A stretch of 64,000 nucleotides of DNA from Octopus vulgaris (Eukaryota), in contig OX597814.1 of the NCBI GenBank assembly GCA_951406725.2, positions 137,702,001 to 137,766,000 of the forward strand, given 5' to 3'. How positions within the stretch are numbered: the first letter of the stretch is position 1; each line of letters starts with the position of its first letter. The notes beneath the pieces were generated by a model. The model was not told the DNA's origin, did not search any database, and saw only the letters and a program-made list of their open reading frames with translations. A program made the translations under genes and the position numbers. This document shows positions 7,365 through 55,900 of the stretch, piece after piece.

Positions 7365-9055
7365 GTGATTTGTTCAATCTAAATTGTTTAGTGTTATGAA
7401 TATAAGTTTTTTTTCCTTTTTGAATGTAATGTTGCTAGCCCCTTTCCAACTTTGTAGGTAATTACAATGAATAGCTACAGGCACTAATGAAAGAAGATTA
7501 ATTTATATTCAACACAGTCTTTTTTTTTTTTTTACATCAAGTTTTCCTATTTTGCATTTTGAATATGTCCTCTTATATGGTTCAACACGACGTTCATGGG
7601 GTGTATTTATGATAATAAGCGTCACATATGAAACACAAAAACAATTATTCGTATATAACAGGGGTCCTTAATTGGTCTGCCGTGGTGCATTGCTACATTA
7701 TATGGTATTATTGCTGCACCACAAAGGATATATATGTAGGTGTGTCGCAGATTTTAAGAATTTTTTTTGCCTCTTTAGAAAACTCATACTAATGCTTTAG
7801 CATTTTATAAAGTGTGTTCATGATTTTGTTATATGCAAGTATGATTAAAAAGCAAGGTAAGCAATAATTTTTTCTTATATTCTAGCTATATTTTCAGTTC
7901 TAAAACCGCTCTTTTTAATAGAATATTCCATGAAATGTGAGTCGTAATGGAAAGCCTTCCTCCCGTAATTTTTGTTTTGCTATGAGGTATTTCATAGGGC
8001 AAATAAAATTGATAAGTACTTTACATACGCACATACATACACGTACGTACATGCATAGATATATGCACATACACACGCTCACATGCATCTACATACAAAA
8101 CACGTATATACATAAGTACATACCAACTTATATTCATACACACATCATACATACATATTCAGGTGTGTAGTGGGGACAAGGTCAGCAAGAATTTATGTCC
8201 GGCCACTTAAAATGAAATATTCAAAGGTTTCACATATTTTCATCGCCCTTTGAAAGATTTAGCAATAAGTTAATTGTAAGATAGAATTATGTCATTAGGT
8301 TATACTCGAATGAGTTTTTATTTTGTCAGAAACAGTTAATGCTTTCTTAATTGGACACAAGGTCTCTAACCTGTGGGTTTTGGTATAGTTCACACTGGAC
8401 AATCTTTTTCGAAATGCAGGCCGCATGAGACATGGCTCACGATCAAGCAGACTGCACTACTAAAATAAATAAATAAATAAATATATTTCATTAGGTGTGC
8501 CATTCAGAAAATCCCGTGGGCCTTAGGTTGCCCATGACTAGATTAGAGCTGTCACAGGCAAACTGCAGCCCACGGGACTTTTTGACTGGCACGCCTAACG
8601 AAAACTTTCCTTGAATTTTTATAATAGTGTGGCCCATCTATTGAATGAACCATTTCTCATGCCACCCGATTCCCGAGAATGATTGTTCATGTCTGGTTTA
8701 GAGCTTATAGTTGAGTATAGAATTTAAAGGACGGGGTTGTTACGGTTGGAAAACTAGTTGTGTCGAAATTCAATTGTATATGCACATGATTTACTTGTTT
8801 AGAGCATGCGAGGAACCAAAATGAATCTGACTGTTTAATTTTTATGATGAAAAATTTATATTTCAGACCATAAAATATGGAATATTCTAAATTTCATACT
8901 CTCTTACATGTAGAGAGACTCAGAACTTCCTTGGTAAAATAACATATATTCTGAGGCAGTATTTGAAGCTATACTTCATACTAAGTCAGTGGAAACCTAG
9001 ATATCTAGCTCAACAAGCAATACCAATTTCTTGTTTAATATTGCTTTCCAATTTA

Positions 9056-10561: not shown

Positions 10562-11875
10562 CATGGTGCGATGGGTAAATTGTCGCCATTTCATATTTTT
10601 TATTTTGCGCATGCATATTGTTTTTAATTTTGTTGACTACACAGTATTGTAGTGTCAGTTGGGCACCGTCTGTGAGAAAACTAGTACCGTGACGCAATTC
10701 ACTCTGCCAGAAATTTGGAAATGACATGCTGTACTGTTTGGCATTCGTGCCGGAAGCTCCAATGCGAACATTTCAGAGTGTTTTTGGTGTCAATCTGAGG
10801 ACAGTGCAGAGGATTCGGAAAGAGTTGGATAAGTCTCATGGTGATTACGAAGGTACAGCAGCTCGGAAAACTCACTTTGATCGTTCTGATCAGAAAAAAA
10901 CTCCAGAATTTTTGGTGAGATCTAGGTCAATGGAGTTCTTTTCTGAGGTCATGATTGACAACGTTCCCTCCATGTCACTCAGGTTCATTGTCAGGGACAT
11001 AAGTGTGTCTGAGTTTCTTATCAGGCAAGTAGTGCATGAAGACATTCGGTATTTCTCATACAAGATGAGAAAGGGCCAATTTTTATCCCAAGCCATCAAG
11101 TGCAAGAGGAAAGACCGCGCTACGAAGCTTTTGAACAAACTCAAGCATCCCCTCCAACTGAACATGCTTTGGTTTTTCTCAGACGAGAAAAAATTCTGCT
11201 AGGATCATATGGTGAACACAAAACAACCGTTGGATTGCTGTGTCTCCAAAACACGTACCGAGAGTGATAAAAATCAAACATCCAGTCAACATCATGGTGT
11301 TTGGAGTGATCACTAGTGATGTCAACGTTATACCTCCATTCATCTTCCCACACGGCCTCTGACTCAACACAGTAGTCTACATCAAGTGCCTGGAGTAGGT
11401 AGTGCTGCCCTGGGTCAAGAAGGTGGCTACTGGAAGACTCTGTGTCTGGCAACAGGACTCTGCAACATGCCACACAAGCAGGAGAATCCGGTCTTGGCAG
11501 TCAGACAATTTCTCCAACCACATCACCCCTAACATCTGGCTACCTAATACCCCAGACTGCAATCACCTTGAATACTATATGTGGGACGCAGTTGAGCGAC
11601 AGACCAACAAAACTCCTTGCAACACCAAAGATGAACTGAAGGCAAGGATTATGGCAGCGTTCACCAACTTAAACAAGGTGACCGCCCAGAAGAGTGTGCA
11701 GGAGATTCCGAGGTCGTTTGGAGGCTGTGTTTGAAGCCAATGGCGATTTTATTGAATAAATTAACTCTTTAGTATTTCAGGATATATTTATGCAATTTTG
11801 GTAAATATCTGTTAAAATGAGATGTCAGTTATTTTCATTTTTGTATAATTTAGACGATAATTTATTCATCGCACC

Positions 11876-12407: not shown

Positions 12408-15232
12408 CAGGGGTCTCCAAAGGTTTTTAATCCGGCCCGCCGAGCTGTCCTCCAAAATTATAAAACAAATGTCGAAAAACAAGCCTTGCCGAAATCATAC
12501 AAAAACAAATATACTTTACACCCCTTTTAATATGTTTGACAAATATAGTACAGCAAATAGACGCAAGATGACGCTAATTGATTTGCCATCAATTAATGTC
12601 TTTAAATTGCGCCGGCGAATTAAAAATCTATACACTAAACTTTAGTGTAAATATAGGTTCTTTTCCACTCCCCCCGTTTTAACTGACCCATCAGAACCAC
12701 CATAAAATGAATTAACTTCGCTATGGAGCTACCTATCATTCATCTTAGATAATAGGCGATTGTCAGTGAGATGGATGGTGCTGCTTACAATGAAGCAGAG
12801 ATTCAATTTCTAGCTTTATTGATGTCGCAGAAAAGTCAACCTATTCCGTCAACTGTCGAGAGAGCAGATACGACAAGTATGACGTTAATAAAAGTCCCGT
12901 GCCTAGTATAATAAAAGAAGACAAATATTGATTTATCGATGTTACCTACATCTCACGAGCGATGAATAGAGAGGGTTGAGCCTGACGTTGTGTGGTGGTT
13001 TCTAATCCTGGTGCAGTCGCCAATCAGCGTGGAGTAAAGTTCGATGCGCATTCCGTCAGTCAGCACAGACTTGGCGTTTTCGTTGTGCACAAGTGTGAGT
13101 CATTTGTCGTCGTCGCTGCCGAAGTGAATGCACATATCGAGTGACCTGTGAATATTGTTTTTACTTGTTTCGTCCTTTTACATATATCGTCGAGCAAAAT
13201 CTGTCGACCCATGGTAAAAATGTTAGCTCAAGGAAGAAAACGAAAAATCGACTCTGAGTGTAGAGTTTTTAAGGAACAATGGAACATAGACTATTTTGTC
13301 ATAGAGTCAAACAACAAGGCACTATGCGTTATATGCACCGACACAATTGCAGTACTTAAAGAGTACAACATTCGGAGACATTATGAAAAAAAGCATTCAT
13401 CACAGTACTACCAATTCATTGGACAGCTATGTAAAGAGAAATTTGACAAATTAAAGAAGAATTTATCATCAATGCAGTTTGTTTTCAAGAAGAAGGCTGT
13501 AGAAAAAGAGAGAGCAACAAGAGCAAGCTTCCATGTTGCTAACCTTTTGGCGAAGAAAGGTAAGCCATTTACAGATGGTGAACTTATTAAAAAGTGCTTG
13601 AATGAGGTAGCTAAGGAAATGTGTCCAGAAAACGTAGATTTATTTTCCGCAATTAGTCTTTCTGCGAACACTGTTGCTCGTAGGGTTGAACATATTGAAA
13701 GAAATATTAAATCACAGCTAAAAGACAAAACCAGCAAGTTTGTATGCTTTTCTGTTGCACTTGATGAGTCAATTGATGTATCAGACACATCCCAATTGTT
13801 ATTGTTCATCAGAGGAATAAATGCCAATTTTGAGATTACTGAGGAACTTGTATCTGTGCACAGCATGCATGGAACAACAACAGGCATAGATATTTTTAGA
13901 GAAGTGGAAAAGTCAGTGGCTGAGTATAATTTGGAATGGAAAAAACTAAAATGCATAACAACAGATGGTGGCAGAAATATGTGTGGAACCAAAAAGGGCT
14001 TAGTTGGGCAAATTAACAAAGCAATTGAGAATTCCGGTGGATTGAAACCTTTGGTATTGCATTGTATTCTTCATCAGCAAGCACTGTGTGGAAAGCATCT
14101 TGATTTATCATCTGTATTAGATCCTGTGATTTCCACTGTTAACTACATAAGATCTCATGGACTCAAACATCGCCAATTTCGTGATTTCTTGGAGGAAATG
14201 AATGCTGAGTTTCCAGACCTACCTTACTATACTTCAGTAAGATGACTTAGCTATGGAAAAATTCTGGCTAGATTTTTTGAGCTTCGAACTGAAATTGAAA
14301 TATTTTTAAATGAGAAAAACCATTCACAGGTGTTGCTCAAAGACAGTGAATGGCTCTGGAAATTAGCATTTTCAGCCGATTTAACTATGCATCTCAATGA
14401 TTTCAACCTACGGATACAAGGTGAAACTTCACTCATCTGTGATTTGTACTCAAAGGTGAAAGCTTTTCGTAAGAAATTAATACTATTTGAAAGTCAGTTA
14501 ACAAGAAGCTGCTTTACTCATTTTTCACGATGTGACAAATATAGACAGGAAGCTGCCACTCCATTTCCAAACTTGTTTGCTCAAGATGTCATTTTAGCTT
14601 TGAAACAACAGTTTAAAGAACGTTTTTCTGATCTTGATGCATGTTCTTCAAAACTAAGAATTTTTGAAAATCCATTTAACTCTGTTATTGGAGACTTACC
14701 TTCTGAGTTACAAATGGAAGTTATTGATTTGCAATCCAATGACATCCTGAAGGACAAATATAAAGAGGGAAATTTGATTGAATTCTACAAATGCCTTCCA
14801 TCCGACCAATTTCTTCATTTAAGGAGGTTTGCCTGTGAATTCATTTCAGTTTTTGGCACCACATATTTGTGTGAGAAGACTTTTTCAAAGATGAAATACA
14901 CAAAATCCTGCTACAGATCACAATTGTCTGATGAACATTTAAATGCATTGCTTGTTATTGGAACCACTCATTTTGAACCTCAGTTGGACAAAATTTTGTC
15001 AGAAATGAAACAATTTCATGTTTCCCCTATTGATCAAAGTTAAAAAAAACATGTTAATTGTTACTGATATTATATACATTGTGATTATGTACTGAATAAA
15101 TAACCTTTTTTAATTATTAATTCACTATTTATTTATATTATTTTGGTAAAATAAATAATTTAGAACCTTGGCCCCCGTAGCTTTAAAAATTCAGCAATGT
15201 GGCCCTCCGCTGGAAAACTTTGGAGACCCCTG
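12408..15232 (+). mobile_element. Full-length hAT DNA transposon, Buster family (SPIN/OposCharlie1/GTF2IRD2-like), 2825 bp
   Basis: Perfect 15-bp TIRs CAGGGGTCTCCAAAG (12408-12422) and CTTTGGAGACCCCTG (15218-15232). Identical 8-bp TSD GTTTACAC (12400-12407 and 15233-15240) with the NNNTANNN Buster pattern. Confidence 0.97.
13211..15043 (+). pseudogene. hAT transposase (about 610 codons) with a single in-frame nonsense codon
   Basis: ORFs 13148-14245 and 14330-15043 share one frame. Motifs: BED-like CVIC...RRHYEKKH, ALDESID, ITTDG, HCILHQQALC, and C-terminal FGTTYLCEKTFSKMKYTKS.YRSQLSDEHL. TGA at 14243-14245 replaces the W of the conserved VRWLS motif. Confidence 0.95.
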
Positions 15233-15529
15233 GTTTACACGGTGAAAAACGTGTTTCACAGACAGCACTATCGGCGAACAACAGCAAACACTACTGTATG
15301 AATTCTTACAGAGGCAGGACTTTGGAAAGCCTAAAAACATTTAGTTAATCGTTAGATCAGTGGTTCCCAAACATTTTTTTCGTCGCGGAATCCTTCGACA
15401 TTATTTGTAAAAACGTGGGATCTTTACTTTTTGACCTACAGATTTAAAAAATTACTTTTTGTAACTAAACACTTTCAAACTTCGGACACTGGTAGAATGT
15501 GTTATATAAAACATGTTTTACTCTTAGCA

Positions 15530-19812: not shown

Positions 19813-21008
19813 ACACACAGACAGACAGACAGACACACACACACACACATACACACACACAATCTCACTTGCGATAATCTTTGTCAACTCATCAGCTGTC
19901 ATATTATATGCAGCACTAATTTTAGATACTATGACTGTACATTAGTGGATTAACAACATCTTCTTAGGTGAATACCCTAAATTACATGTTGGCAACTAGA
20001 AAACAACCTTTTCATTTTATTATTTATTTTAATTATTCGGTAAGCTTTTGAGTTGCTCACCTACTTTCATGGACCCAGTTCACTGGGACAGAGACTTTAC
20101 CATACTCTGTAGAGGACATTGCATAACCTGTTAGTGACAGAATTCAAATACAGGACATTTCAGATTTCAAGAGTAAGGTCAGCTGATAAATATCCAATCA
20201 GTGATTCTGCATAGCAAAGGTCATTCACCATTGTTTCCCTTATGTATCTTATGCAGACGCCCTCTGCATTATGGAAACATTCCGTTACCAGAAAATCTTG
20301 TTGTAAACTGTCATTGCCTCCATGAGGCCCAGCACTTAAAAGATGCTTTTTACATGCCACCAGCGTGGATGCCAGTTACGCGACACTAGCATTGGTCATG
20401 GCTATGATTTCACTTGACTTGACAGGTTTTCTCAAGCACAGCATATTGCCAAAGGTCTCTTCATTTAATTATTGAAGTAAATTTAATATTTGCTTGATTT
20501 AGAGTGTGATGGCCAAGGTGACCGCCCCAAGATCAGAAATATCTATAATCCCAAAAAGTTTTAATGCAAAACCTCTGATGAATTTTCTTGCAATATCTTT
20601 CTACCATTTTTTTTTTTTACATAAAAAAGATATTTTTTAATGTTTTCAGGATTAAAATCTGCCAATTGGAGTAATTCATTTTTTACTAGAGAGAATTACA
20701 AGGATTAAGATAAAATGTATGAGTGCATGAAAGAAAGAGGGGAGGAGAGAGAGAGAGGGGAAGAGAGAGAGAGTTAGTTTTTTATATATACAAAGAAAAT
20801 TAGAAATGAGTTATTGGTTTGAAAATGCTCCTAGAATATTTACATTAATTTCATTAAGTATAAACATTTCCAAGAACTAATATAATATTTTCATTTCTAT
20901 TCCTCCTCCCCTATTTTACAATTTGAACAGTTTTTTTCTAAGTTTTCTTTTATTTTTAAGCCTAATTTCAAGCAACTCTTCCAGATGAAATATCAATAAA
21001 ATAAAAGT

Positions 21009-21235: not shown

Positions 21236-22769
21236 ATGCTGATATAAATAATATTGTTGTTTAAGTTGAAAGTCAACCTTTGATTAAAAGTGTTCCAGCT
21301 GCAACTATCCCATCTTATTTTAAGGTCAAATGTATCTAGGATTCCATTATCCAGTGTATCCTTTTATTTTTCCTAGTTGGTTGAGTGTGATTTGAAGGAG
21401 ATGTGACTTCTATTGCTAGATCAAAAAACAACATTATAAAGAATGGAATATCCTATTGCTACTTGTAATGAGAATGAAGAAATGAATGATAAAGTTTTTT
21501 TCTAGCATAAAAACATGTCAATAATAAAATACTGATACAACATTGACTTTCTGGGTAATGATGGTCTGGAGCCTCTTACAATCCACACTAATTTACACTA
21601 ATGTACATCATCATCATCCTCATCATTTAACATCTGTTGTCCATGCTGACATAGAGTGGACAGTTTGATCAGGGCTGGTAGGCTGATGGGCTGCACCAGA
21701 TTCAAGTCTGATTCAGCATGGTTTCTATGGCTGGATGCCTTTCCTAATGCCAACCACTCCAAGAGTGTAATGGGTGTCAGTTGCATGCCACCAACATGGC
21801 TGTCAGTTGTATGACACCAGTGTCTGCCATGACTATGATTTGGCTTGATGAGTCTTCTACTCAAGCACTGCATATTGTCAAAGGTCTCGGTCATTTGTCA
21901 TTGCCTCCATGAGACGCAATGCTTAAAATATGCTTTTTACATGTCACCAGCATGGGTGCCAGTTACGCGACACCAGCATTGGTCATAGCTATGATTTCAC
22001 TTGACTTGATGGGTTTTCTCAAGCACAGCATATTGCCAAAGGTCTCTTCATTTAATTATTGAAGTAAATTTAATATTTGCTTGATTTAGAGTGTGATGGC
22101 CAAGGCAATCACCCCAAGATCAGAAATATCTATAATCCCCAAAAGTTTTAAATCCAAAGGTTTATGAAAATTGATGTTGTACTTGTACTATAAAACCAAG
22201 ATCTGTATTGAAGCTATTGGCTTCAACAGTCAAATATATGCTTGATAGTATAATAAAATAGGAAGTAATAGTTAAAAAACAAAGCAAAAATCTTAACCTA
22301 AATTGACAGTATATGTTATTTATTTATTATTCATTACATGCTAACTGAAAATCACATGTTCAGAGCAATACACGTGCCATGAAATAATTAGGGTAACATT
22401 TCATGATCAAGATCTTCTGTCCCATGTAATCTTTTATCATTATGGAAATAAACTGTGGCATGAGAAATTAATGATTTATGAAATGAATTCTGTGTTAATT
22501 ACTGGTTTGACTGCTGTCTTTCTAATGATGTATAAATTATCTAATTAGATGCCTGAACAAAATTTTGAAGTTTTTATCACTTCTGATATTTTCACATGAA
22601 GTAAATAAATTTTCCACAAGGCTGTCAGTCTAGATTTTCTCTTGCTTTTAAACATGTAACCTTGTGTAACCATATACGTTTTTGAAAAATACATTTGTTC
22701 ACATGGGATAGCAATTAAATATTTGTAATCTTATTATAAATAAATGATTCATTTTATTTAATAAAAGCA

Positions 22770-34790: not shown

Positions 34791-37700
34791 TAAGTGTATT
34801 ACTATAAATGTGTTGAAATTTGAAATGTAATTGTGTCAGTTAAATATAGTTTGAAAAGAGATTAAAGTGATATCAACAAAAGTATTATCAGTAAATGCTG
34901 TAATTTTGTGAAAATTATTTTGAAATTTTGAGCATATATGAGATTATATTCAATGCAACTTAGAAGATTTGGATTTATTATTAAAGAGCCAATTGAAAGT
35001 TGAAAGAAGTAGGATATGGAATAGTTAATTACCAAAGATATTTTATTAAAAATCTTCATGAATATGAAATATGGTTCTGTGTCTACACTAATTGATATTG
35101 TCATTGAAGACATTTGTCTATGTTGCCAATGAAGATGTTCTAGTAGTTGATTTTATTTTTAATAGTTAAAAAAAAAATGGGGTCAAGAAATAACCTTGAA
35201 GCTACTCCGCCTTTCTTTCTAAAGTTTGTTATTTAAAGCATTGACTTGATCTGTGTGTATGTCTGTTAAGGCTGTGTTTAATCTTGGAGACGATGAAAGT
35301 TGAATGGAAATGTCATAAATAAAGCAGAAGGCCAAATCTCTTTCAGCTATGCTGTGCCTTTGTTATTGGGAAGGTCTTCCTTTTAAAACACACAAACACA
35401 CATACACATACCCTATCACAAATCCAGCCTAAACTAAACCCTGTTACTACAGAAGTAATCTTCTTGTAACCCTCTATCTGGCACTCTAACAAAAGGTTCC
35501 TTTTCCAAAGAGCTATGTTTGCTGCTTGCTTTAATAATATCTCTGTGTCAACAGTGGTGGCCTATGATGACAAGGTTCCGAAAATCGAAATAGCCGAGAC
35601 TCCATTGTGTTTATTTACATTTTACAAGTAATAATTTTTTTGGTTTTATTTTTTAAAATATTCCGTCTAACTTCAGTTACATTTTCTGGCCAAAACTGTT
35701 TATAACCTTGAACAGAAATAAGTTAAATAAACACGGCATTTTTTTCATCCCTTTTTTCCCTCTCTCTTACTATTTTTGATTACAATACTTGTAAGTCATT
35801 GCTTCAATCAGTTCCTGATTTGGAATAGCAGACATGAAACCAATTGTCTTTTGTCTCAGTAAGTTGATGACATTTACAGATAAAACCCATTTCTTACCTA
35901 TTTTTCTTTTGCAATAATGACTTACTGCACTAATTATTATTTTCTTTATCAATTCTTCCTTAATTTTCATCTCTTTCAAGCATTTATATATATATATATA
36001 TACACACACACATATATATGTATACATTTAGTGTTATAGCTTGGGAAAAAGAGTATTCAGTGTCATTGTAGAGATTATTAATATATTTTATTTTGGTAGA
36101 GTTAGTCCCTTGCTACCTCTGAAATTAGTTTCATCTATGGGTGCACAAGATCTTCAGTTATGTCATAAGTTGCCCGAAGATCCGATGCATTCACAAGTAA
36201 AACTCAGAGTAGCAGGAGACTGACTTGACCAAAATGAAATATATATTTAGCTTTCATTTATAGAAAATTTTGCAAAATTACGTAATTTCTCTGGAGTTGT
36301 GGTTTCCTGTTTTTCTTCTTATCATTTTGCAAATATATTTTGCCATGTGTTTTAATAATGTTTGCTAATTACAATAATGAATGCTGCTGTCTTAGACCTT
36401 TATCTGTAACATTCTATACTAGCTACTGTGACAATTTCATATTACATGTGAAAAATTACATAAACATTATGGTTATTTTTGTTTTTAAATTACCGTGCTG
36501 ATTCGATGTTTATTACTAATGGTAGGAGATATCAGCAATGATATGTTTATTAGTAATTGTAGACCCAGACATTCTCATTAGGATAAGCAGCTTCTTCTTT
36601 AGTCATTCCTCTGTAATATATTAAGTACATAATTCTTTTTTGACCCCATGCCAAACTCAGACACTTATAATTATAATTATATATCTTTCTTCTTCATTTT
36701 TTTTTATTTCTTTCAATCATACACTCAGAGATATCATCACATTCTATGCTTATTTCTCTTTCTGATTGGCTTTGGTGAGCATAGATATTAAATTTCATCG
36801 AACTGATTAATCTTATTTGCAAAAGCAACATGGCTCAGTCATCGGGTATTACTCAGACTTTTGGAATAGTACAGCTGTTTCAGTCATCAAAGTATTAAAA
36901 TGCTTCTTTGGAAAATAACCATCTGTATGAAATGATAATTTTCTACCACTAACTCTATATCATTCTTAACCCATTTTTAAGCCGTCCCCTTAAACTTGAT
37001 TCTTCCATCTCTCTTACTCAAGTAGGTCTATCATATTACCTTCTTACAAACTGAAACTGAAATGTGTTAGCCTAAAACCCATACTTTTTGGGCATAAATT
37101 TCATCCTTCAGATAATCCTTTCACGGGCAAGCTTTTTCATCAATCTTTTGTATTAAATTATGGAGTTCTACATGTCTAGCAAGTGACTTGATTTGAGACC
37201 ATCTGTTGAAACTGAAGCAAGTGCATCATAGAAGAACCAGTTTAGCCATCTAAAAACTCACAAAAACTGTTAAATTCACATTACATTTATATCTCATAAT
37301 TGCTAAGGTGCAATGGAATTGTGTTAGTGATCATGTTGCAGTAGTGTAATGAATATTTTGACACCTCAAAAAGTAAATGAAAAAGTGAATTTAAATAGTC
37401 TCTTATGGGTCCTTAAATGGTCGAGATTGCAGTTCTTCCATGTTGTAATTGCTGTTGAATTTAACTTATATTCTACTATACAACTATCTGTCTTTTGCTT
37501 GAGTGAGGTCATGAGAGTAGGGGTTCTCAACCATTTATGTATGGACTCCTTTGATTACTATTTTACTCTGGTGAACCCCCATAACCATTCTATGTTTGAA
37601 AACTAGTTTTATAGAAACTGCTTTCAATATTCCTATTTTGTTTTTCACACATTTACCCGTGTAGGTTGAATTATGTAAAATGTTAGAGAAAGAAACCGGG

Positions 37701-45069: not shown

Positions 45070-48000
45070 GTTTAATGTTCGTTTTCCATGCTAGCATGGG
45101 TTGGACGGTTCGACCGTGGTCTGGGAAGCTAGGAGGCTGCACCAGGCAGATCTGGCAGTGTTTCTACAGCTGGATGCCCTTCCTAATGCCAACCACTCCG
45201 TGAGTGTAGTGGGTGCTTTTTACGTGCCACCGGCACAGAAGCCAGTCAAGGTGGTGCTGGCATCGGCCACGTTCGGATGGTGCTTTTTACGTGCCATTGG
45301 CACAGAAGCCAGTCAAGGCGGCACTGGCATCGGCCACGTTCGGATGGTACTTTTTACGTGCCACCAGCCAGGTTGACTTTGCCTTTCATTTCTTCAAGGT
45401 TTCATAAAATAAGTACCAGTTGATCACTTGGGGTCGATGTAATTGACTAGCTCCTCCCCCAAACTTGTTGGCCTTGGGCCAAAATTTGAAACTAATATAG
45501 AAAGGTAATCTGTAGGACTTAGATCAGGGAATATCGTATCTTTTATGTACTAGGCTGAATTGTAAGTGTATAAGAACCTGTATAAGAATTGTTGGGGTGC
45601 ATCTGTGCTGACAAAAAAACGTTTTATTTTTTTACACATTCATTGGTAAGCAACTTGCATTAAATTATGGTTGTAGTCTTAAGGCTTGAATTGAAACAAA
45701 GATAGTGTATTTCTGTTGAAATGCACCACTTTTGTACTGTTGTTTCAATTCATTTTGAAAATAATAAAGAATTTAGTAAAACAACTTTGTCCTTAGTTGG
45801 CTGATATTTGGAACATAACATGAAATTCTGACAGAAGGTCTTAATGTTGATCATTATGAAGCAAAAAGTTTAGATCATAGACCCAAAGGTGGTTTCAAAC
45901 TCAATACAAAGTTTGGTATCAAAAGGGTTATACCATTTTTTTTCATATGGGTTTTTTGTGACTTTGTCACTTGGCAAGTTTAAATTTGAATGCATGCAAA
46001 ATTTTATCCAGAGGTGGGAAGTTTATGTTTTTATTTTTCGAAAGAGTGAGTGGATTTGAAACATTGACTGGACTTTGTCTGAAAAATCATAGGGATTGAA
46101 TTGACAACATCAGCTGGGGCTTCCATGTTGATGGCAATAAATTAAACGAGATACAACCATTTCTAAAGTTGAATCTAAATAAACTAATTTGGATTCAGAT
46201 TAACGGAATGGGTGAGCAATTTAATGAACTGTTTTACTTCATGTAAAATTTTGGACAATTAAACATTAAAAAAAAATTACATCTAATCATCATCATCATC
46301 ATTTAATGTCTGTTTTCTATGCTGGCATGGGTTGAATGGTTTGACAGGATCCAATGAGCCACAGGGCTGTACAAAGTTCCATTGTTGGCTTTGCCATGGT
46401 TTCTGTAGCTGGATGCCCTTCCTAATGCCAGCCACTTTACAATATGTACTGGGTGCTTTTCATCATTCTACCAATATTGGTGACATTGCCAAGTAATTGC
46501 AAGACAAAAAAAAAGAATGGGAAAATTTTCAGAAAAAAGTTTAATGGCTTCAAGGGTTTAATCAAGCAAATCGATCCCTATACTTATTTTATCAGTCTCT
46601 TTTGCCAAACTGCTACATTATGGAGACGTAAACAAACCAACACTGGTTATTGAGTGGTGGTGATGGTGGTGGGGGGCATAAATACAAACACAAAGACACA
46701 CATATATGTGAAGGGCTTCCACACAGTTTCCATGCATCAGATTTATTCAGAAGACATTGGTAGGTTTGGGGTTACAGTACAAGACACTTGCCCAAGGTGC
46801 TGAGCAGGAGGACTGAACCTGAAACGATATAGTAAATTTCTGTGAAAAATGCTTTACTATGCAAAGCAATAGGGTAATCTTAACCTTTTCTGTTACAAAA
46901 CAAGACTCAAAACAACAAAAGTAGAATTAATGATAACCATAAAATATTAGAAATTTATAAAGTTTAGGAATGATTAAAATAATCCAAAATGAAAAATTTT
47001 TGAATGGCTCAAAATAGTTTCAATTAATTTTGAGAAATATCGATTAGCAATCCAAGCAACAATTTTTTTCCCACAGTCAATGTTGCTTAATTTTTGTTGA
47101 ATTTCAGACATAAGGAAATTTTTTGAGGGCAAAAAGGCAACCACATTCCTTTTCTGTCGAACTGACAGCATATCTGCTACATTCTTGTCATACATTAAGT
47201 GTGCATGTTTCCTCAATCCTGTATTGATACAAACTCAATTGTACCTTCATAGACAAAGTCAAATGGTGGAACTTATTTTAAATGGGATTACAGCTATGTT
47301 CAGTAAACAGATCCTAACACTTTGACTGTGTAATTAAATTTCATGGTCATTCCCATAATGATCAATGTTAACTATTCACCAAAAAAAAAAAAAAATTAGA
47401 ATTGATATTTTCTGTTTCTGCAATACTTTTTCAGTATCTCTTGAAGGTCTGCAGGTACAGTTTTCATATCTACCACTAAAAATATTTGGTTCTTACTCCA
47501 TAAAGAGATATTTGAAATATATGAGAAAAAAATAAAGAAAGATCTGAAAAATTAATTTTGTTAGAAAGTGTCATTGGGGGTGTCTCCTTTTCTTGCAGCA
47601 TAATATTTTATCTTTTATTTGTTTCGCTGAGACTCCACCTTGAAAAAATTTTGGTCGAATGAATTGACCCCCAGTAATTAATTATTTTTTTTTGTTAAAC
47701 CTGGTACTTATTCTATCATCCGTTTTGCCAAACCACTCAGTTATAGGATGTAAAAACACCAACACCAGTTGTCAAAATGTGGTGGGGGACAAACGCATAC
47801 ACAAGGGGACACGGGGACACACACACACACACATATGATGGGCTTCTTCCTGAGGCTATAGTAGAAGACACAGTGGGACTGAATCCAGAACCATGTGACT
47901 AGGAAACAAGCTTCTTACCACACAACCATGTCTGTGCCTATAAACTAATTGATTTTCAAACCTTATTGGAGTCTCGTTAGAGACATCTATATGGGGTAAA

Positions 48001-49933: not shown

Positions 49934-52900
49934 CTCTTCTGTTGAAGATGATGTATGAATGTTCAGCTTTTGCTTAACGACCTGCACAAATGGTTTGTTT
50001 ATTGTGATCAAAACAATGTTTTCTGAACTGGTGCATGGTGTGTCACTCATCAGGTGTTGAAGTAATCATAAAGCAATGCGGGATGAGGTTTTTTACTTGA
50101 AGAAACAACAGACCACTTGGTCTGAGAATTGAAATCACGATTGCTAGATCATGAGTGCAACACCCTAAACTCTAAGCCATATATCATATAATGCTTGTAT
50201 ATAAGGCACAAGCATGGTTTTGTGTTTGAGGGGATTTGTGGTTTCACATCCAGTCTCACAATGTAACACTGTAGGCAAGTGTTTTTCTACTGTAGTCCAG
50301 GGCCAACCAAAGCTTTGTGAATGGATTTGTGAATTTTATATAATAATAATAATAATGAAATTATTGTATACAGTGCTCAGGTGCACCACAACTTGTCAAA
50401 AGTGTGTATAAAGCGTATGCAGTAATGTACAAATGTCTGGGAAGTGAACAGTGTATGAGTCAGATATATGCTTGTGTATGTATGGAGGGGAGGAAATCAG
50501 GTGTAGTGTTGGCAAATCTCAGGAAGCTTGGAAGTTTTGAAGGATGCATTGCTCTGACAACTAACAACTGACGCCAGCAGTGTGTTCCATGCATCAGCAA
50601 CTCTTAGCGTGGTGTGTGGAACTAGATTTCTGTTACTTGAGAAATCACTAAAGGTTAGTCGTAGAAAAGGTATCCAGCTGTAAAACGACATATTCATATA
50701 ATCAATATTATCATGGAAAAACAGTTGTAAAATTGAGCAGGTAATAAAATATTGTGTATGTATGTGTATTTCTGTCTATATTGTGTATGTATGTGTATTT
50801 CTGTCTGAGTATGAACATAAATGTCATAGTAAACACTGTGCTATCAAGAAAGCTTCATACATGTTTTATCACTGTTTGTCTTTGTCATTAACATTATCCT
50901 GTTGTATATTATTTATATTAATTTTGATTACTGTAATATATATATTTCATTTACAGATCTTTACTATCTGCTTAACTGAAGTGAATGGCCTCCATTGTGT
51001 TTTGGAAGCATTTTCATACATTTGTTTCAAGTTTGGGGAGCCCATGCGCTTTAAACTACTGATGAACATGTTAAAGAATACAACTTCTCAACAACTTAGC
51101 TTCCAGGTGCGTTGCCAAACATATTTCTTCGATTCATTCAAGCATCCGTCCGTCCATCCATCCATCCATCCATCCATCCATCCATCTTCTCCACCCACTA
51201 TTCCTAGGATGCTTGTTGGGGTTTAGTCCTCACACTCCTGCTCCATAGGATCCTATCGGAAGCAACCATCATTACACTTTCTGGTTGGATTCGCAAGCAT
51301 GACCAACTGAGACTGACAAATAAAAGGCACCCACTACACTCTGTGGAGTGGTTGGCATTTGGAAGAGCATCCAGCTGAAGAAACCAAGTCAAATCAGAAT
51401 GGAGCCTGGTTCAGCTTTATGGCATGTCAGTCCCAGTTAAACCATCTAACCCATGCCAGCATGGAAAATGGATGCTAAATGATGATGATGATATTAATTT
51501 TGGTCTACCCCTAAGTCTTCAACCAGTTGACTCAGCTTGAAGAATCCCTCTTGTGATTCTTTCCTGTGACATACTAATTACAATATCTGTAGAATGAGAG
51601 CATTGATCTCTCAATGCAGAGAAGTAGCAGCTTGACCTGGGGAGACTTTCTGATTTCTGAGCTAAGCAACCAGTCAAGTAATGTTACTTCAAAGATCCTT
51701 CAAAGGAACCCCGTTTCAGATGCTTATATTTAAAATTGTACTCATACAGTCATTACCCATCAATCATGACCATAGGTGATGATAGGCACAAAAATTCATT
51801 TGAAGATAACATGTTTCTTCCACCAATTTAAACAGCTATGATGTTTTGATTGCTAATTTTATGGAGAAAAAAAATGAAGTAGAAAAAAATTAAAAGAATA
51901 AATGTAACCTACATATTTTAAAAAATGATTTCTTTACAAGTTTTTTTTCTTCTTTTAAACAGTAAGAGAGAAGCCTCTCTGCGCTAATACTGCCTCTGCC
52001 ACTAAAATTTATTTTCTAATCAGTTTGTTACATAAGCCTTTAGCATTGAAACTGTTCATATCTGGCCAAAATATTCTATCTGTTTTATGTTTAAATTGGC
52101 TAAATCCTGCCTCTCACACCTATCCTACAAAGTCATTCTAAAAATAAACAGTCACATCATTGAAATCTTACTGCTATGAAATAAGCGATGATTAATTCCA
52201 AGCAATGTAAACAAATTAGCAGTACATTTGATAGAATAATCTGAATGCTAAAGGCTTAAAGTTATTTTGAATTAAGATATTTAGAAACCATATCTTTATT
52301 TACAATAATTTTGTTTCTTTTTCTCCCTCATAGGTGGCATGTTTGAGATTTGCTAATACCATGTTAAATGCAACATCAACTCTTAATCATCGAGTTTTTC
52401 TGCAACATCAGTTGCTGGCAGCTGGCTTAGATATTGATTTCTTAGAAAAGGTATGTAAATTTCATACTAGTATTTAATTAAGATCTTGTACAATTTATAC
52501 TAGATTTTTCTTTTTACTCAATGTAATTTAAGCCTGTTGTTCCCATCAAATTGTTATACATACATACATACTTAGATACATAGATACATCCATATGAACA
52601 TGTGTGTATGTGTGTATATGTATATGCATGTGTGTGTATGTATGTGTGTGTGTATATATATTGTCCCGCCCATGCCAGCATGAAAAGCGGACGTTAAATG
52701 ATGATGATGATGATAATATATACATATCTATGGACCCTTTTGATTCCTATTTACTCTGATGGACCTTCCTAACCATTCAATGTTTTAAAAAATCCTCTTA
52801 TATTTTTGTAAAAAAATTGTTAAAATATTTTGTGTATTGTAAATGTAAATTTTTTCCCAAATAAAATGTACTTCATATTTAATGCTCTGATGAAGCTATA

Positions 52901-55900
52901 AGGTGTTACTCAGGCACTCAACTATGAGCACACTGCATCTTATAGCAGAAACAACTGTAAGCTAATGAAGTTCATAAGATAATCATTAATTCCTTTGTCA
53001 TCTCATTTTCTTATCGCTGCTCTGTACTCATTCTGAAGCAGTGTATATTGAGGTTATTAGCCAGGTTAAATTTCAGATAAATTTTAATAACAAAATCTTA
53101 TATGGACCTCCACAAGGGCCATATGAACCCCGGTTGAAAACCACTGGTTTAGTGATAATGATATAATAAGAATTTAGAAATTTCAGGAAAATATGGAATA
53201 ATTCATTTTTGCAACATTGGAGCTTGAAGCAGATAAGCTATAAATAATAGCATGTAAATATTAGATTAAAACTCTTTGAACAGAAAAGTCAAAAGCTGTC
53301 CATGGAATACATAGGGCAGCCCTTGACTTATCTCATCCAAAGCATTTTTAACTTTACATTTATACATAATTATTTATCTGCTTCAAGATCTAGTGTTCCA
53401 AAAAAGAATATACTGTTAAGTTTTCAATAGTACATTCATTTAAATTTACTTTCTTTCCCATTTATTAGCAAGAAACTGAGGGAAATGGTTGCGATCTGGC
53501 TGAGCTTCATCATGAAATTACTAATTGGAAGACCAATTTTGTCAATGTTGAAAGCATTCAAGAGGAACAAATAATGGCTGAAAGCAGAAATTCAATTCTT
53601 CGTCGAGAGGTAAGAAAAATGTTTACAGTATTACATTTGACCCATTTTGATTGTTTGACCTATTTTGATTATTATATAAAGCACAAATCAGTCGATCATG
53701 TTGGGAATGGTTTAGGGATTCTGTTACTACTTCACATATGTTTCAGTTTTCTGTTTTGGCTCTTTCATTGATTAATACCTTCTTATATGAAAACAACACA
53801 TAAAGTCACATAGCCTGGTGGTTAGGATGTTGCACTTGCAATTGGAAGATTGTGGTTTCAATTCACAGACCAATGGTTTGTTGTGTTCTTGAGTAAAACA
53901 CTTCATTTCCCATTGCTCCTGTCCACTCAGCTGTAAATAGATAACCTTTTGGTGGGACTGGCATTTCATCCAAGGGGATGTCAATCTGGTCACCTAACCA
54001 GTGGTGTGGCATCATTCAAAGGATACAACAATGCAAAGAAGTGCATTGTGACCAGTGGTGCATAACAACATCTGATAGTCTGGTGAATGCAGTGATAATA
54101 GTACAGCATCTCAGGTGTATCAAGGAAGAAAAAAAACAATTAATAATGTATTGGAATCAGATAAATTCATTCATTTTCATACCCATTTATTTTAATCCTT
54201 TCCATTTCAATCTCTATTCTTCCTCTACAACTTTTGTTATCACTTTTGAAATTTGAATAAACTTTACTGCTTTTCAGGCATATAACTATAGAATGCCCAG
54301 GAGGAAAAAAAAAATGAATTTATCTGACTGCCCAATCCATGCCTTTCACAAGGACCTTAACATTGTCACTGAAATTGCTTCTATTGTTGCAGATGTGGCT
54401 TATTAACTGTTTACTACTTCCCCTCTTTATGTGAAGGCTTGGCTCAGTGGTTAAGAGGATATAATTCAGAGAAATACTATTTATATATCTATTTATACAA
54501 AAAAGTAAATTTTTTCCCAAATAAAATGTACCTCATATTTAATGCTCTGATGAAGCTATAAGGTGTTACTCAGGCACTCAACTATGAGCACACTGCATCT
54601 TATAGCAGAAACAACTGTAAGCTAATGAAGTTCATAAGATAATCATTAATTCCTTTGTCATCTCATTTTCTTATCGCTGCTCTGTACTCATTCTGAAGCA
54701 GTGTATATTGAGGTTATTAGCCAGGTTATTAGCCTTGCAATGCCTTAGTGAAATATCAAAATATCTATTTACTTAATCATATCTATGTAGAAACTAAAAG
54801 CATCAATTTCCTCAATATCTTTATGTGTATTTTAATATTCATTTATTTTGTCTTACAGGTGGATATTCTTCAAACAAAAATGAAAGTAAGTACTCAATAA
54901 TGTTTATTATACTAGCACTGCTTCTATTTAATATTTAAATTTGTTTTTACATATGCATTGCTCAGGTATTCTCACACATACTTTCCCCGCTGAATTCATA
55001 GAAGTTGTGGACTGGTGAAATGATTCATCTCTGATCCTGTTTGGGCACATGATGTTGATAAGCCACAAAAATGGCAAAACATCAATGTCCATCATTCCTA
55101 GATGGGATTAGAGGTGAGTTACCTCACCTGTCCATTACTTTCAGGTGTATTATCACCTGACGCTTTGAGAGAGTATTCTCTACCATACTATATCAGAGCA
55201 AATACACAAGCCATGTATGTTAAGCATATGTGGTTGATAATGTTTGTTACATGAGCACTACTTCTATTTCATATTTGAATTTATTCTGAAGTACTTATAA
55301 TTTGTTTTTGTATTCACTTTGCAAGACACTCTAGAAAAGTTGTAACTGGTAATGCTTCTAAAATACTTCTAAAAATAATATCTTTTAGTCATTTGATTTT
55401 GTATTATACATTCTTTGAGCCATTGCTGGGCATAATGACATTTTAATTAATATTTGTATCTTGGTACTTTCAGAATATTGAAAATGATTTTGAATCTTCA
55501 AAAAGTCATCTTACTGAGGTAAGCATTCATAGTTTATATAAAAAAGTTTTATTCAATAAAGTGTGACTTGCTGCTCAATGATTTCATGAAAAAAGAATTC
55601 CAAAAGTGAATACCTGGTGGGTTATGACTTTCAGAGAGCTTTTCCAGTAATGCTTTGTTTAAAATATATTTTCTCTGAAGCCTTTTGTGCATACATATAT
55701 ATGAGGGGTTAAAGTATGAGAGAAGGGGCAAGAGTATAGCAGATTTCTTGCTGTAGAGAAGCTACATGACTACACACACACATGTATATTCACATGCATT
55801 TTCATTTTCCCTCTCTCCATATATATATGCATATATATATACACACACACATTATGTGTGTTTATCGATCTATGTATCAGTCTGTCTATCTATCTAGATA

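Follow-up and report, generated by a model that had tools for sequence, protein, structure and literature searches.

A worn hammerhead-bearing repeat and its putative local duplicate flank a formin exon in Octopus vulgaris

Minimal hammerhead ribozymes (min-HHR) occur in the pLTRs of metazoan Penelope-like elements (PLEs; Cervera and de la Pena 2014, PMC4209133), where, in the portion of that account available, monomers do not cleave and dimers cleave little. The axolotl hammerhead HHR_Amex2 carries a natural U-U mismatch at the base of helix II (excerpted text of PMC7229834), and the intronic ribozymes of RECK, C10orf118 and CPEB3 are presented in excerpts of PMC3088659 and PMC6765202 as conserved single loci with measured activity. 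Our literature search, thin on subscription journals, returned neither a reported hammerhead or retrozyme family in octopus nor a reported natural exon flanked by two hammerheads. Here we describe two hammerhead motifs on either side of a formin exon in a 64,000-nt window of Octopus vulgaris contig OX597814.1, in whose numbering all positions are given. Our main reading, to which we assign a probability of roughly 0.8, is that a worn repeat copy and its local duplicate lie here, that they are predicted not to cut, and that the exon is spliced in normally because of this. The arrangement around the exon is most likely an ordinary accident.

The two copies are separated by an offset of 1660 nt. 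An earlier note on this DNA had described a 224-bp unit occurring twice with one mismatch, which is correct for 52845-53068 and 54505-54728 (mismatch at 52872); the true extent of the common stretch is 228 nt (52841-53068 versus 54501-54728), with a second mismatch at 52844. Copy 1 (52841..53068, forward strand) is this 228-nt truncated duplicate, set within a hAT-type MITE. Copy 2 (54490..54758, forward strand), the parent, extends beyond the shared unit and ends 101 nt upstream of the following formin exon; it is a 5'-truncated member of a non-coding hammerhead repeat family, corresponding approximately to consensus positions 165-441.

Both copies contain, in sense orientation, the parts of a minimal type I hammerhead that the note had listed. 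In copy 1 the motif (52884..52962, forward strand) consists of a 3-bp stem I (52884-52886/52960-52962), CUGAUGA at 52887-52893 followed by an extra A at 52894, an 11-bp stem II including one G-U pair (52895-52905/52936-52946), an extra A at 52947, GAAA at 52948-52951, the loop AACT at 52953-52956 and a GUA ending at 52959, after which the cut is predicted. Copy 2 carries the same motif at 54544..54622 (forward strand), with its predicted cut after 54619. The core boxes CUGANGA, GAAA and UH are present in type I order, and they and all 11 stem II pairs are intact in both copies; by a looser test, core and stem II are equally intact in just 14 of 58 complete family segments. Stem II has a pairing probability of 0.5-0.9 in its natural context. 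A descriptor search with a stem II of at least 6 bp matched just these two places in the window, and with at least 8 bp it gave no match in 200 dinucleotide shuffles. Rfam returned no hammerhead model match, either on the window at the gathering cut-off or on 52700-54900 at E<=10, and we read this empty result as a poor fit of the models to the long loop II, not as absence of the motif. The motif does not stand out in its folding z-scores (-0.96 to 0.02), and the ribozyme positions of copy 1 show no significant excess conservation (2/51 versus 12/141, P=0.36). The note's assignment of the motif to the minimal type I hammerheads of Penelope-type elements, which act as dimers, is borne out.

The unit in the window is a fragment of a dispersed non-coding family of ~440 nt. 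A 25-nt family pattern has at least 225 exact matches in the genome, its reversed control none; a family search gave 3417 candidates, 40 of them scored, with other matches at 82-94%. In the family consensus, loop III is palindromic and stem I has 4 bp; its best fold is a double hammerhead. Among the 98 other listed copies, loop III is AGCT in 73, so that one caveat raised earlier stands: the AACT of the window copies departs from the family norm at the position that a dimer needs. A second caveat, the A-A at 10.1/11.1, is right as an observation but not as a sign of decay, since the extra A before GAAA, which places A-A at the helix II base, is family-wide (88 of the 98). About one third of family copies read CCGAUGA (U4C). 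AACT copies are more diverged than the loci compared with them (21% versus 15%); AACT may have been tolerated in source elements, because at 21 of 98 it is commoner than the variation at the other free position. A distinct AACT subfamily was considered and rejected, since comparing 20 with 20 loci brought out no more than two positions with a weak link (uncorrected P about 0.04).

An adjacent inverted partial copy is found at 34 of 115 family loci, family 3' ends cluster at two consensus points (about 349 and 441), and, on a loose criterion, 45 of the 58 full 3' ends run into simple repeats. With its inverted truncated segments, 3' tail and microsatellite flanks, the family fits a non-autonomous or solo-pLTR Penelope-type element; these three features were not seen at the two window copies. 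A covariation test on 22 family copies gave nothing above shuffles. A genomic Penelope-type ORF had no tblastn match in 123 family loci and the window, none of the best 30 of 148 GIY-YIG matches lies in a locus containing the family, and three loci with spaced family copies showed no link to an autonomous partner. The family has evidently spread through the genome, probably by means of borrowed Penelope-like retrotransposon enzymes, as its insertion footprint suggests.

The bracketed exon (53469..53609, forward strand, 141 nt) encodes the end of the FH3 region, is open in frame 1 and is symmetric (phase 0-0), as had been claimed. The formin identity of the host gene is likewise confirmed, the exon mapping to residues 464-510 of an Octopus bimaculoides formin. 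This homologue (P0002) has FH3 and FH2 above the Pfam cut-off and GBD at E 1e-4, below the cut-off, and aligns exon by exon over the window and the next 7 kb. The host is a diaphanous-related formin (GBD, FH3, FH2). Upstream lies a formin exon of the FH3 domain (52334..52450, forward strand), whose Pfam Drf_FH3 match as a lone exon (E 2.5e-5) is below the curated cut-off; the next exon downstream, of 27 nt (54859..54885, forward strand), is delimited by splice joints in 4/4 RNA-type runs. The idea of an MWH-like host protein without FH2 arose from a genome search for the FH2 family, which placed none on this contig among the matches listed, and is ruled out by the FH2 of the homologue and the exon-by-exon mapping. 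In RNA contigs of 4/4 RNA-type runs, exon 53469-53609 is included and spliced on both sides. No exon-skip or back (circle) joint occurs among the 15 joints listed (84 others stand outside that list), in evidence made up of contigs, which drop rare RNA forms, and rare products could thus go unseen. The contigs gave no pile-ups of molecule ends, a signal that contigs would not display, and the run search listed no match recorded as RNA.

That the pair works as a dimer, as the earlier note had suggested, finds no support in structure prediction. AACT breaks the palindrome, and helix III between the copies is predicted to form hardly at all (probability about 0.0002). The helix III duplex is predicted at -11.1 kcal/mol for the consensus versus -1.0 kcal/mol for the window copies, and only for the family consensus does the dimer MFE take the form of the double hammerhead; these energies leave out tertiary contacts, Mg2+ and proteins. 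Stem I has a probability of 0.001 within a copy and at most 0.01 across copies in natural context. By prediction, then, neither window copy retains the pairing that cutting requires, and both are most likely inert; in the pre-mRNA, each would form only the stem II hairpin and be removed with its intron.

It is improbable that the nascent copies nevertheless pair as a long-range double hammerhead, with cuts at 52959 and 54619 yielding a 1660-nt exon RNA, possibly circularised, or in-frame skipping. Both copies are sense-oriented and identical in their ribozymes, with core and stem II intact; 6 of 8 helix III pairs are still possible, skipping of the symmetric exon would preserve the frame, and weak axolotl hammerheads cut much better as dimers in the available part of PMC7229834. 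Against this pairing stand its predicted energy gain of just -3.6 kcal/mol, compared with -16.5 kcal/mol for the consensus, the vanishing inter-copy helix III, and the poor cutting of even intact PLE minimal hammerheads as adjacent dimers, as far as the excerpts of PMC4209133 report. The RNA contigs, with the exon included in every run and no skip or back joint among those listed, also argue against it, as does copy 1, which appears recent and lacks conservation. Marginally less probable still is a scenario in which the accidental duplication made a protein-aided double hammerhead that cuts both introns, giving one octopus lineage an exon circle or a skipping switch.

The likely history of the pair begins with the MITE. 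That copy 1 lies inside a hAT MITE (52725..53146, no strand assigned) holds, 13 of 14 other MITE copies spanning the site without the insert (1061 candidates, 40 scored); insert-skipping joints of other MITE copies were also found in DNA runs. The relative near 37516, proposed earlier as an empty-site control, does not serve as one, as it aligns only to 52725-52790, short of the insertion site. Terminal inverted repeats starting with CAGTGG, an end motif that we take to be hAT-type, are present at both ends of several other MITE copies and at the right end only in the window (53132-53146, intact), where the left one is missing. At the insertion of copy 1, ~15 nt of the MITE are gone and there is no target-site duplication.

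Both copies share a 12-nt deletion and an altered 3' segment, a private scar whose 25-nt junction is found at just these two places in the genome with 2 mismatches allowed. Copy 1 is nested inside the extent of copy 2, and both mismatches between them are derived in copy 2. On sequence grounds, copy 2 is the older insertion and copy 1 a local duplicate of it, and the near-identity of the copies is explained by recent local duplication, not by selection. Copy 2 inserted in sense orientation into the intron downstream of the exon and has since decayed by ~10%; measured against the family consensus, it lacks the palindrome of loop III and the fourth pair of stem I. Later, as the private scar shows, 228 nt of it was copied 1.66 kb upstream into the MITE, probably, to judge from the junction, during templated repair of a DNA break. 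The window holds one other local duplicate, at 20309 and 21896 (93%, 1587 bp apart), with no hammerhead match.

There is little likelihood that copy 1 arose through RNA, whether by reverse transcription of copy 2 with Penelope enzymes and its reinsertion nearby or by a single burst in which both copies left a common source. The family is likely RNA-mobile, and Penelope-type insertions, in the available text of PMC8557442, are frequently fragmentary and without clear target-site duplications. This route is largely refuted by the scar, found nowhere else in the genome; moreover, the end of copy 1 coincides neither with a preferred 3' end nor with the cut site, and copy 1 lacks an inverted segment and lies inside a MITE, not in a microsatellite.

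Another reading is an old duplication whose copies stayed similar through gene conversion, whether or not selection took part. In its favour, close direct repeats can convert each other, and in organism E, a more distant animal where the 3' tail of copy 2 is present, copy 1 has no locus-specific cover. We regard this reading as unlikely to a similar degree: 2 differences in 228 nt directly fit a recent duplication, the probability of at most 2 differences at the 5.6% divergence of organism E (33/593) is 2e-4, and runs X4 and X6 show a further copy 1 difference at 53060. An assembly artefact in one copy is the least probable alternative, for although no contig spans the whole stretch and no listed locus-specific contig bridges the left junction of copy 1, DNA run X6 spans the right junction of copy 1 (53030-53252) and both ends of copy 2 (54212-54562 and 54690-55073), DNA run X4 bridges the left end of copy 2 and covers 53060, and their alleles, unlike those of the window, mark both as other individuals.

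On the reading of a worn copy and its local duplicate, the import is most likely small: one more hammerhead-bearing octopus repeat family and one local duplication. The family holds a natural core variant, with A-A throughout and U4C in about a third, that is open to activity testing, and the locus offers a natural test of joint action by two intronic minimal hammerheads 1.66 kb apart. Such joint action bears on what genomic hammerheads do to host genes; were it true, a single duplication would let repeat ribozymes reshape host pre-mRNAs.

Compared with known systems, each known here from partial text, the locus resembles the amniote RECK and C10orf118 hammerheads and CPEB3 in having a sense ribozyme motif in a host intron (PMC3088659, PMC6765202); unlike these, the octopus copies belong to a large repeat family, have decayed, and give no sign of conservation. 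The duplication resembles MMBIR-type templated insertions in being copied from a nearby template with few bases replaced, whereas PMC8421209 sought short inverted copies less than 100 bp away and the present copy, of 228 nt, is direct and lies 1.66 kb from its template. Metazoan non-LTR retrozymes (Cervera and de la Pena 2020, PMC7229834), which are expressed as circular RNAs, are likewise non-coding, a few hundred nt long and equipped with a dimer-dependent type I hammerhead, and the A-A of the octopus family at the helix II base recalls the mismatch of HHR_Amex2. Retrozymes differ in their head-to-tail arrays, tandems being near absent here (1 partial tandem in 115 family loci), and in a helix I of 6 bp and helix II of 4 bp, against an 11-bp helix II and a proximal helix I of 3-4 bp in octopus. 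Unlike autonomous Penelope-like elements, the family has no linked RT or GIY-YIG ORF at the loci searched. In PLE min-HHR, as portrayed in the excerpts of PMC4209133, helix I spans 4-5 bp, a length that the octopus consensus reaches with 4 bp and the window copies, at 3 bp, do not. These hammerheads differ from the octopus family in its second extra A before GAAA and its CCGAUGA in about a third of copies, and from the window copies in loop 3, where AACT lacks the palindrome. Where they have a G10.1-C11.1 pair directly before G12, the octopus motif has a G-C pair with the extra A between it and GAAA. Like them, the octopus motif combines type I topology with a long helix II and a short helix I, has an extra nucleotide between 9 and 10.1 (here A52894) followed by a G-C pair, and belongs to a family of mostly scattered single copies, with opposite-strand pairs near each other, whose consensus loop 3 is palindromic and for which dimer action is predicted.

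The bracketed formin exon (53469-53609) is flanked by a 228-nt direct repeat, in which 52841-53068 (copy 1) equals 54501-54728 (within copy 2) except for sole mismatches at 52844 and 52872. In gene sense, each copy consists of stem I (3 bp), CUGAUGA and an extra A, followed by stem II (11 bp, one pair being G-U), a second extra A, GAAA, C-AACT-G and UA. Cut sites are predicted after 52959 in copy 1 and after 54619 in copy 2. A descriptor scan of the window with stem II of at least 6 bp matched these two copies only, and no match with stem II of at least 8 bp arose in 200 shuffles. The two near-identical sense-strand hammerhead cassettes described in an earlier note are thus borne out by repeat and descriptor; the Rfam search it proposed was run and picked up neither hammerhead.

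DNA sequencing runs of other individuals carry junctions of both copies. Contigs of run X6 extend across the right junction of copy 1 and across each end of copy 2; those of run X4 bridge the left end of copy 2. Their alleles differ from the window, including one at 53060 within copy 1. In run X15, from a more distant organism (E), the 3' tail of copy 2 is joined to its flank, with 33 differences in 593 nt. None of the DNA contigs examined spans the whole locus or bridges the left junction of copy 1. The repeat pair is very probably not an assembly artefact, a concern raised earlier.

The identity of the bracketed exon was likewise confirmed. GT-AG joints connect it to 52450 and to the exon at 54859 in all four RNA-type runs (four studies), counted among the splice joints listed (84 more exist) and in RNA contigs, which lose rare RNA forms. 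It corresponds to residues 464-510 of the Octopus bimaculoides formin, which maps exon by exon across the window and 7 kb beyond and has the domains FH3 and FH2, together with a GBD match that is weaker. An adjoining exon matches formin-like proteins of O. bimaculoides (94%) and Argonauta hians. On this homology the genome belongs to an octopus. Two distinct first coding exons, 2513-2728 fitting the Argonauta formin and 7820-7864 fitting that of O. bimaculoides, suggest a formin with alternative starts. A 27-nt microexon (54859-54885), present in all four RNA-type runs, begins 101 nt downstream of the end of copy 2. A formin intron also houses a plus-strand transposase-like gene (13145-15040) that a single stop divides into two open frames, of 366 and then 265 aa, the first matching a Spin-doc zinc finger and DUF4371, with a CAGTGG-type end at 15358. 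Open-frame inspection revealed further broken plus-strand frames at 10693-11731, presumably of Tc1/mariner-type transposase.

As judged from its sequence, the shared unit is a fragment of a dispersed repeat. A genome search with it gave 3417 candidates, of which 40 were scored, the others being 82-94% identical; a 25-nt family pattern had 225 exact genome matches (reversed control, 0). Searches with the middle, 5' and 3' portions yielded loci that assemble into a non-coding element of ~440 nt. Among loci picked by similarity, so that fractions are not genome-wide rates, 34 of 115 have an adjacent inverted partial copy and one a tandem-like copy. Clusters of 3' ends lie near consensus positions 349 and 441; of 58 full 3' ends, 45 are followed by simple repeats (loose test). 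These features match the arrangement of Penelope-like elements (PLEs) described in PMC8557442. At one family locus (L025), ~70 nt beyond the 3' end of the family copy, there is another minimal hammerhead-like motif; it is unrelated, has a short stem II and probably comes from a different repeat family.

A genomic RT-GIY-YIG frame matched nothing in 123 family loci or the window, and none of the best 30 of 148 GIY-YIG matches contained the family. Open RT frames with C-terminal GIY-YIG and a cysteine linker (L082:1-1791, L087:1-1791 and L094) are what we take to be Neptune-like. Many 781-aa open frames of Penelope type occur among the matches listed genome-wide, hence a young autonomous family is present; its 3' region has short tandem repeats.

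When positions 4-5 were allowed to vary, the 65 exact matches comprised CUGAUGA (34), CCGAUGA (20), CCAAUGA (7), CUAAUGA (3) and CCUAUGA (1); an example from this family-wide U4C survey is G000:C2:54188542-54188565. The CCGAUGA and CCAAUGA counts thus point to a U4C source for part of the family. Some canonical-looking cores, possibly the window's too, may be products of CpG decay. The U4C variant is reported to cut less well in vitro, yet to support a viroid in vivo (PMC3088659).

Copy 2 spans consensus positions 165-441 and copy 1 positions 175-415. Both carry a scar, a 12-nt deletion with an altered 3' segment, missing in other aligned copies; its 25-nt junction, sought across 2.8 Gb with up to 2 mismatches, occurs at these two places only. 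The derived state at both mismatches lies in copy 2. Copy 1 replaced ~15 nt of the interior of a hAT-type MITE (52725-53146) without target-site duplication, and 13 of 14 other MITE copies run across the site without it. The insertion noted earlier therefore stands, although the relative near 37516 then cited stops short of the site. At the divergence of organism E, as few as 2 differences in 228 nt would be improbable (P = 2e-4); barring conversion, copy 1 therefore probably arose after that split. A second direct pair in the window (20309-20564 and 21896-22151; 93% over 256 nt, 1587 bp apart), each the other's best genomic match, had no hammerhead match in the descriptor scan, so local copying at such distance occurs here without a ribozyme. 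Besides a SINE-like family at its 5' part, this pair includes ~100 nt that the family lacks; elsewhere, a SINE-like repeat contains a 67-nt tandem repeat of 2.3 copies (45212-45365). We postulate that copy 1 arose as a templated patch at a DNA break, and the exon-bracketing layout is most likely a by-product of a single local duplication.

That the pair excises the exon, as the earlier note proposed, is very improbable. In favour of activity, core and stem II are intact in both copies, a state that just 14 of 58 complete family segments share under a looser test (8 of 58 with the palindrome as well). Natural mismatches at the helix II base can be active (PMC7229834 and PMC3088659), and AACT is commoner than background mutation suggests, though it marks no clear subfamily. 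Among the matches listed (100 of 225), the 98 copies besides the window's two have loop III AGCT in 73, AACT in 21 and others in 4, with A preceding GAAA in 88. By these counts A-A is ancestral and AACT a minority state, so that of the two caveats raised earlier, AACT departs from the majority while A-A does not. Against excision stand the folding predictions, whose energy models disregard tertiary contacts and chaperones. In the consensus, helix III can pair with itself along 8 bp (-11.1 kcal/mol), and the consensus dimer folds best as a double hammerhead, whereas the window copies reach -1.0 kcal/mol, lack one stem I pair and do not dimerize so in their best fold. With 52860-54660 folded as a single RNA, predicted probabilities are 0.5-0.9 for stem II and 0.0002 for inter-copy helix III; for stem I they are 0.001 inside one copy and no higher than 0.01 between the two. 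Family covariation did not exceed that of shuffles, as expected under neutral decay from a paired ancestor. Changes in copy 1 affect 2 of 51 ribozyme positions, both within pairing elements, vs 12 of 141 elsewhere (P = 0.36; no significant extra conservation). On these models, the hammerhead pair is most likely inert; of the earlier interpretation, the PLE-type minimal hammerhead, formin host and MITE remain.

A literature search, with most subscription journals beyond its reach, found no report of this hammerhead family. Retrozymes form arrays with canonical helices, whereas the family was found without arrays and with non-canonical helices; autonomous Penelope elements carry an ORF, and none was found for the family. 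Templates in a published search for MMBIR-type insertions are shorter, closer and inverted, whereas the presumed template of copy 1, within copy 2, is direct and 1660 bp away. The family consensus does fit the PLE minimal hammerhead as described by Cervera and de la Pena (PMC4209133), with its long helix II, palindromic loop and extra base after position 9. By analogy, the hammerhead of the pair would work, or once have worked, like that of PLEs.
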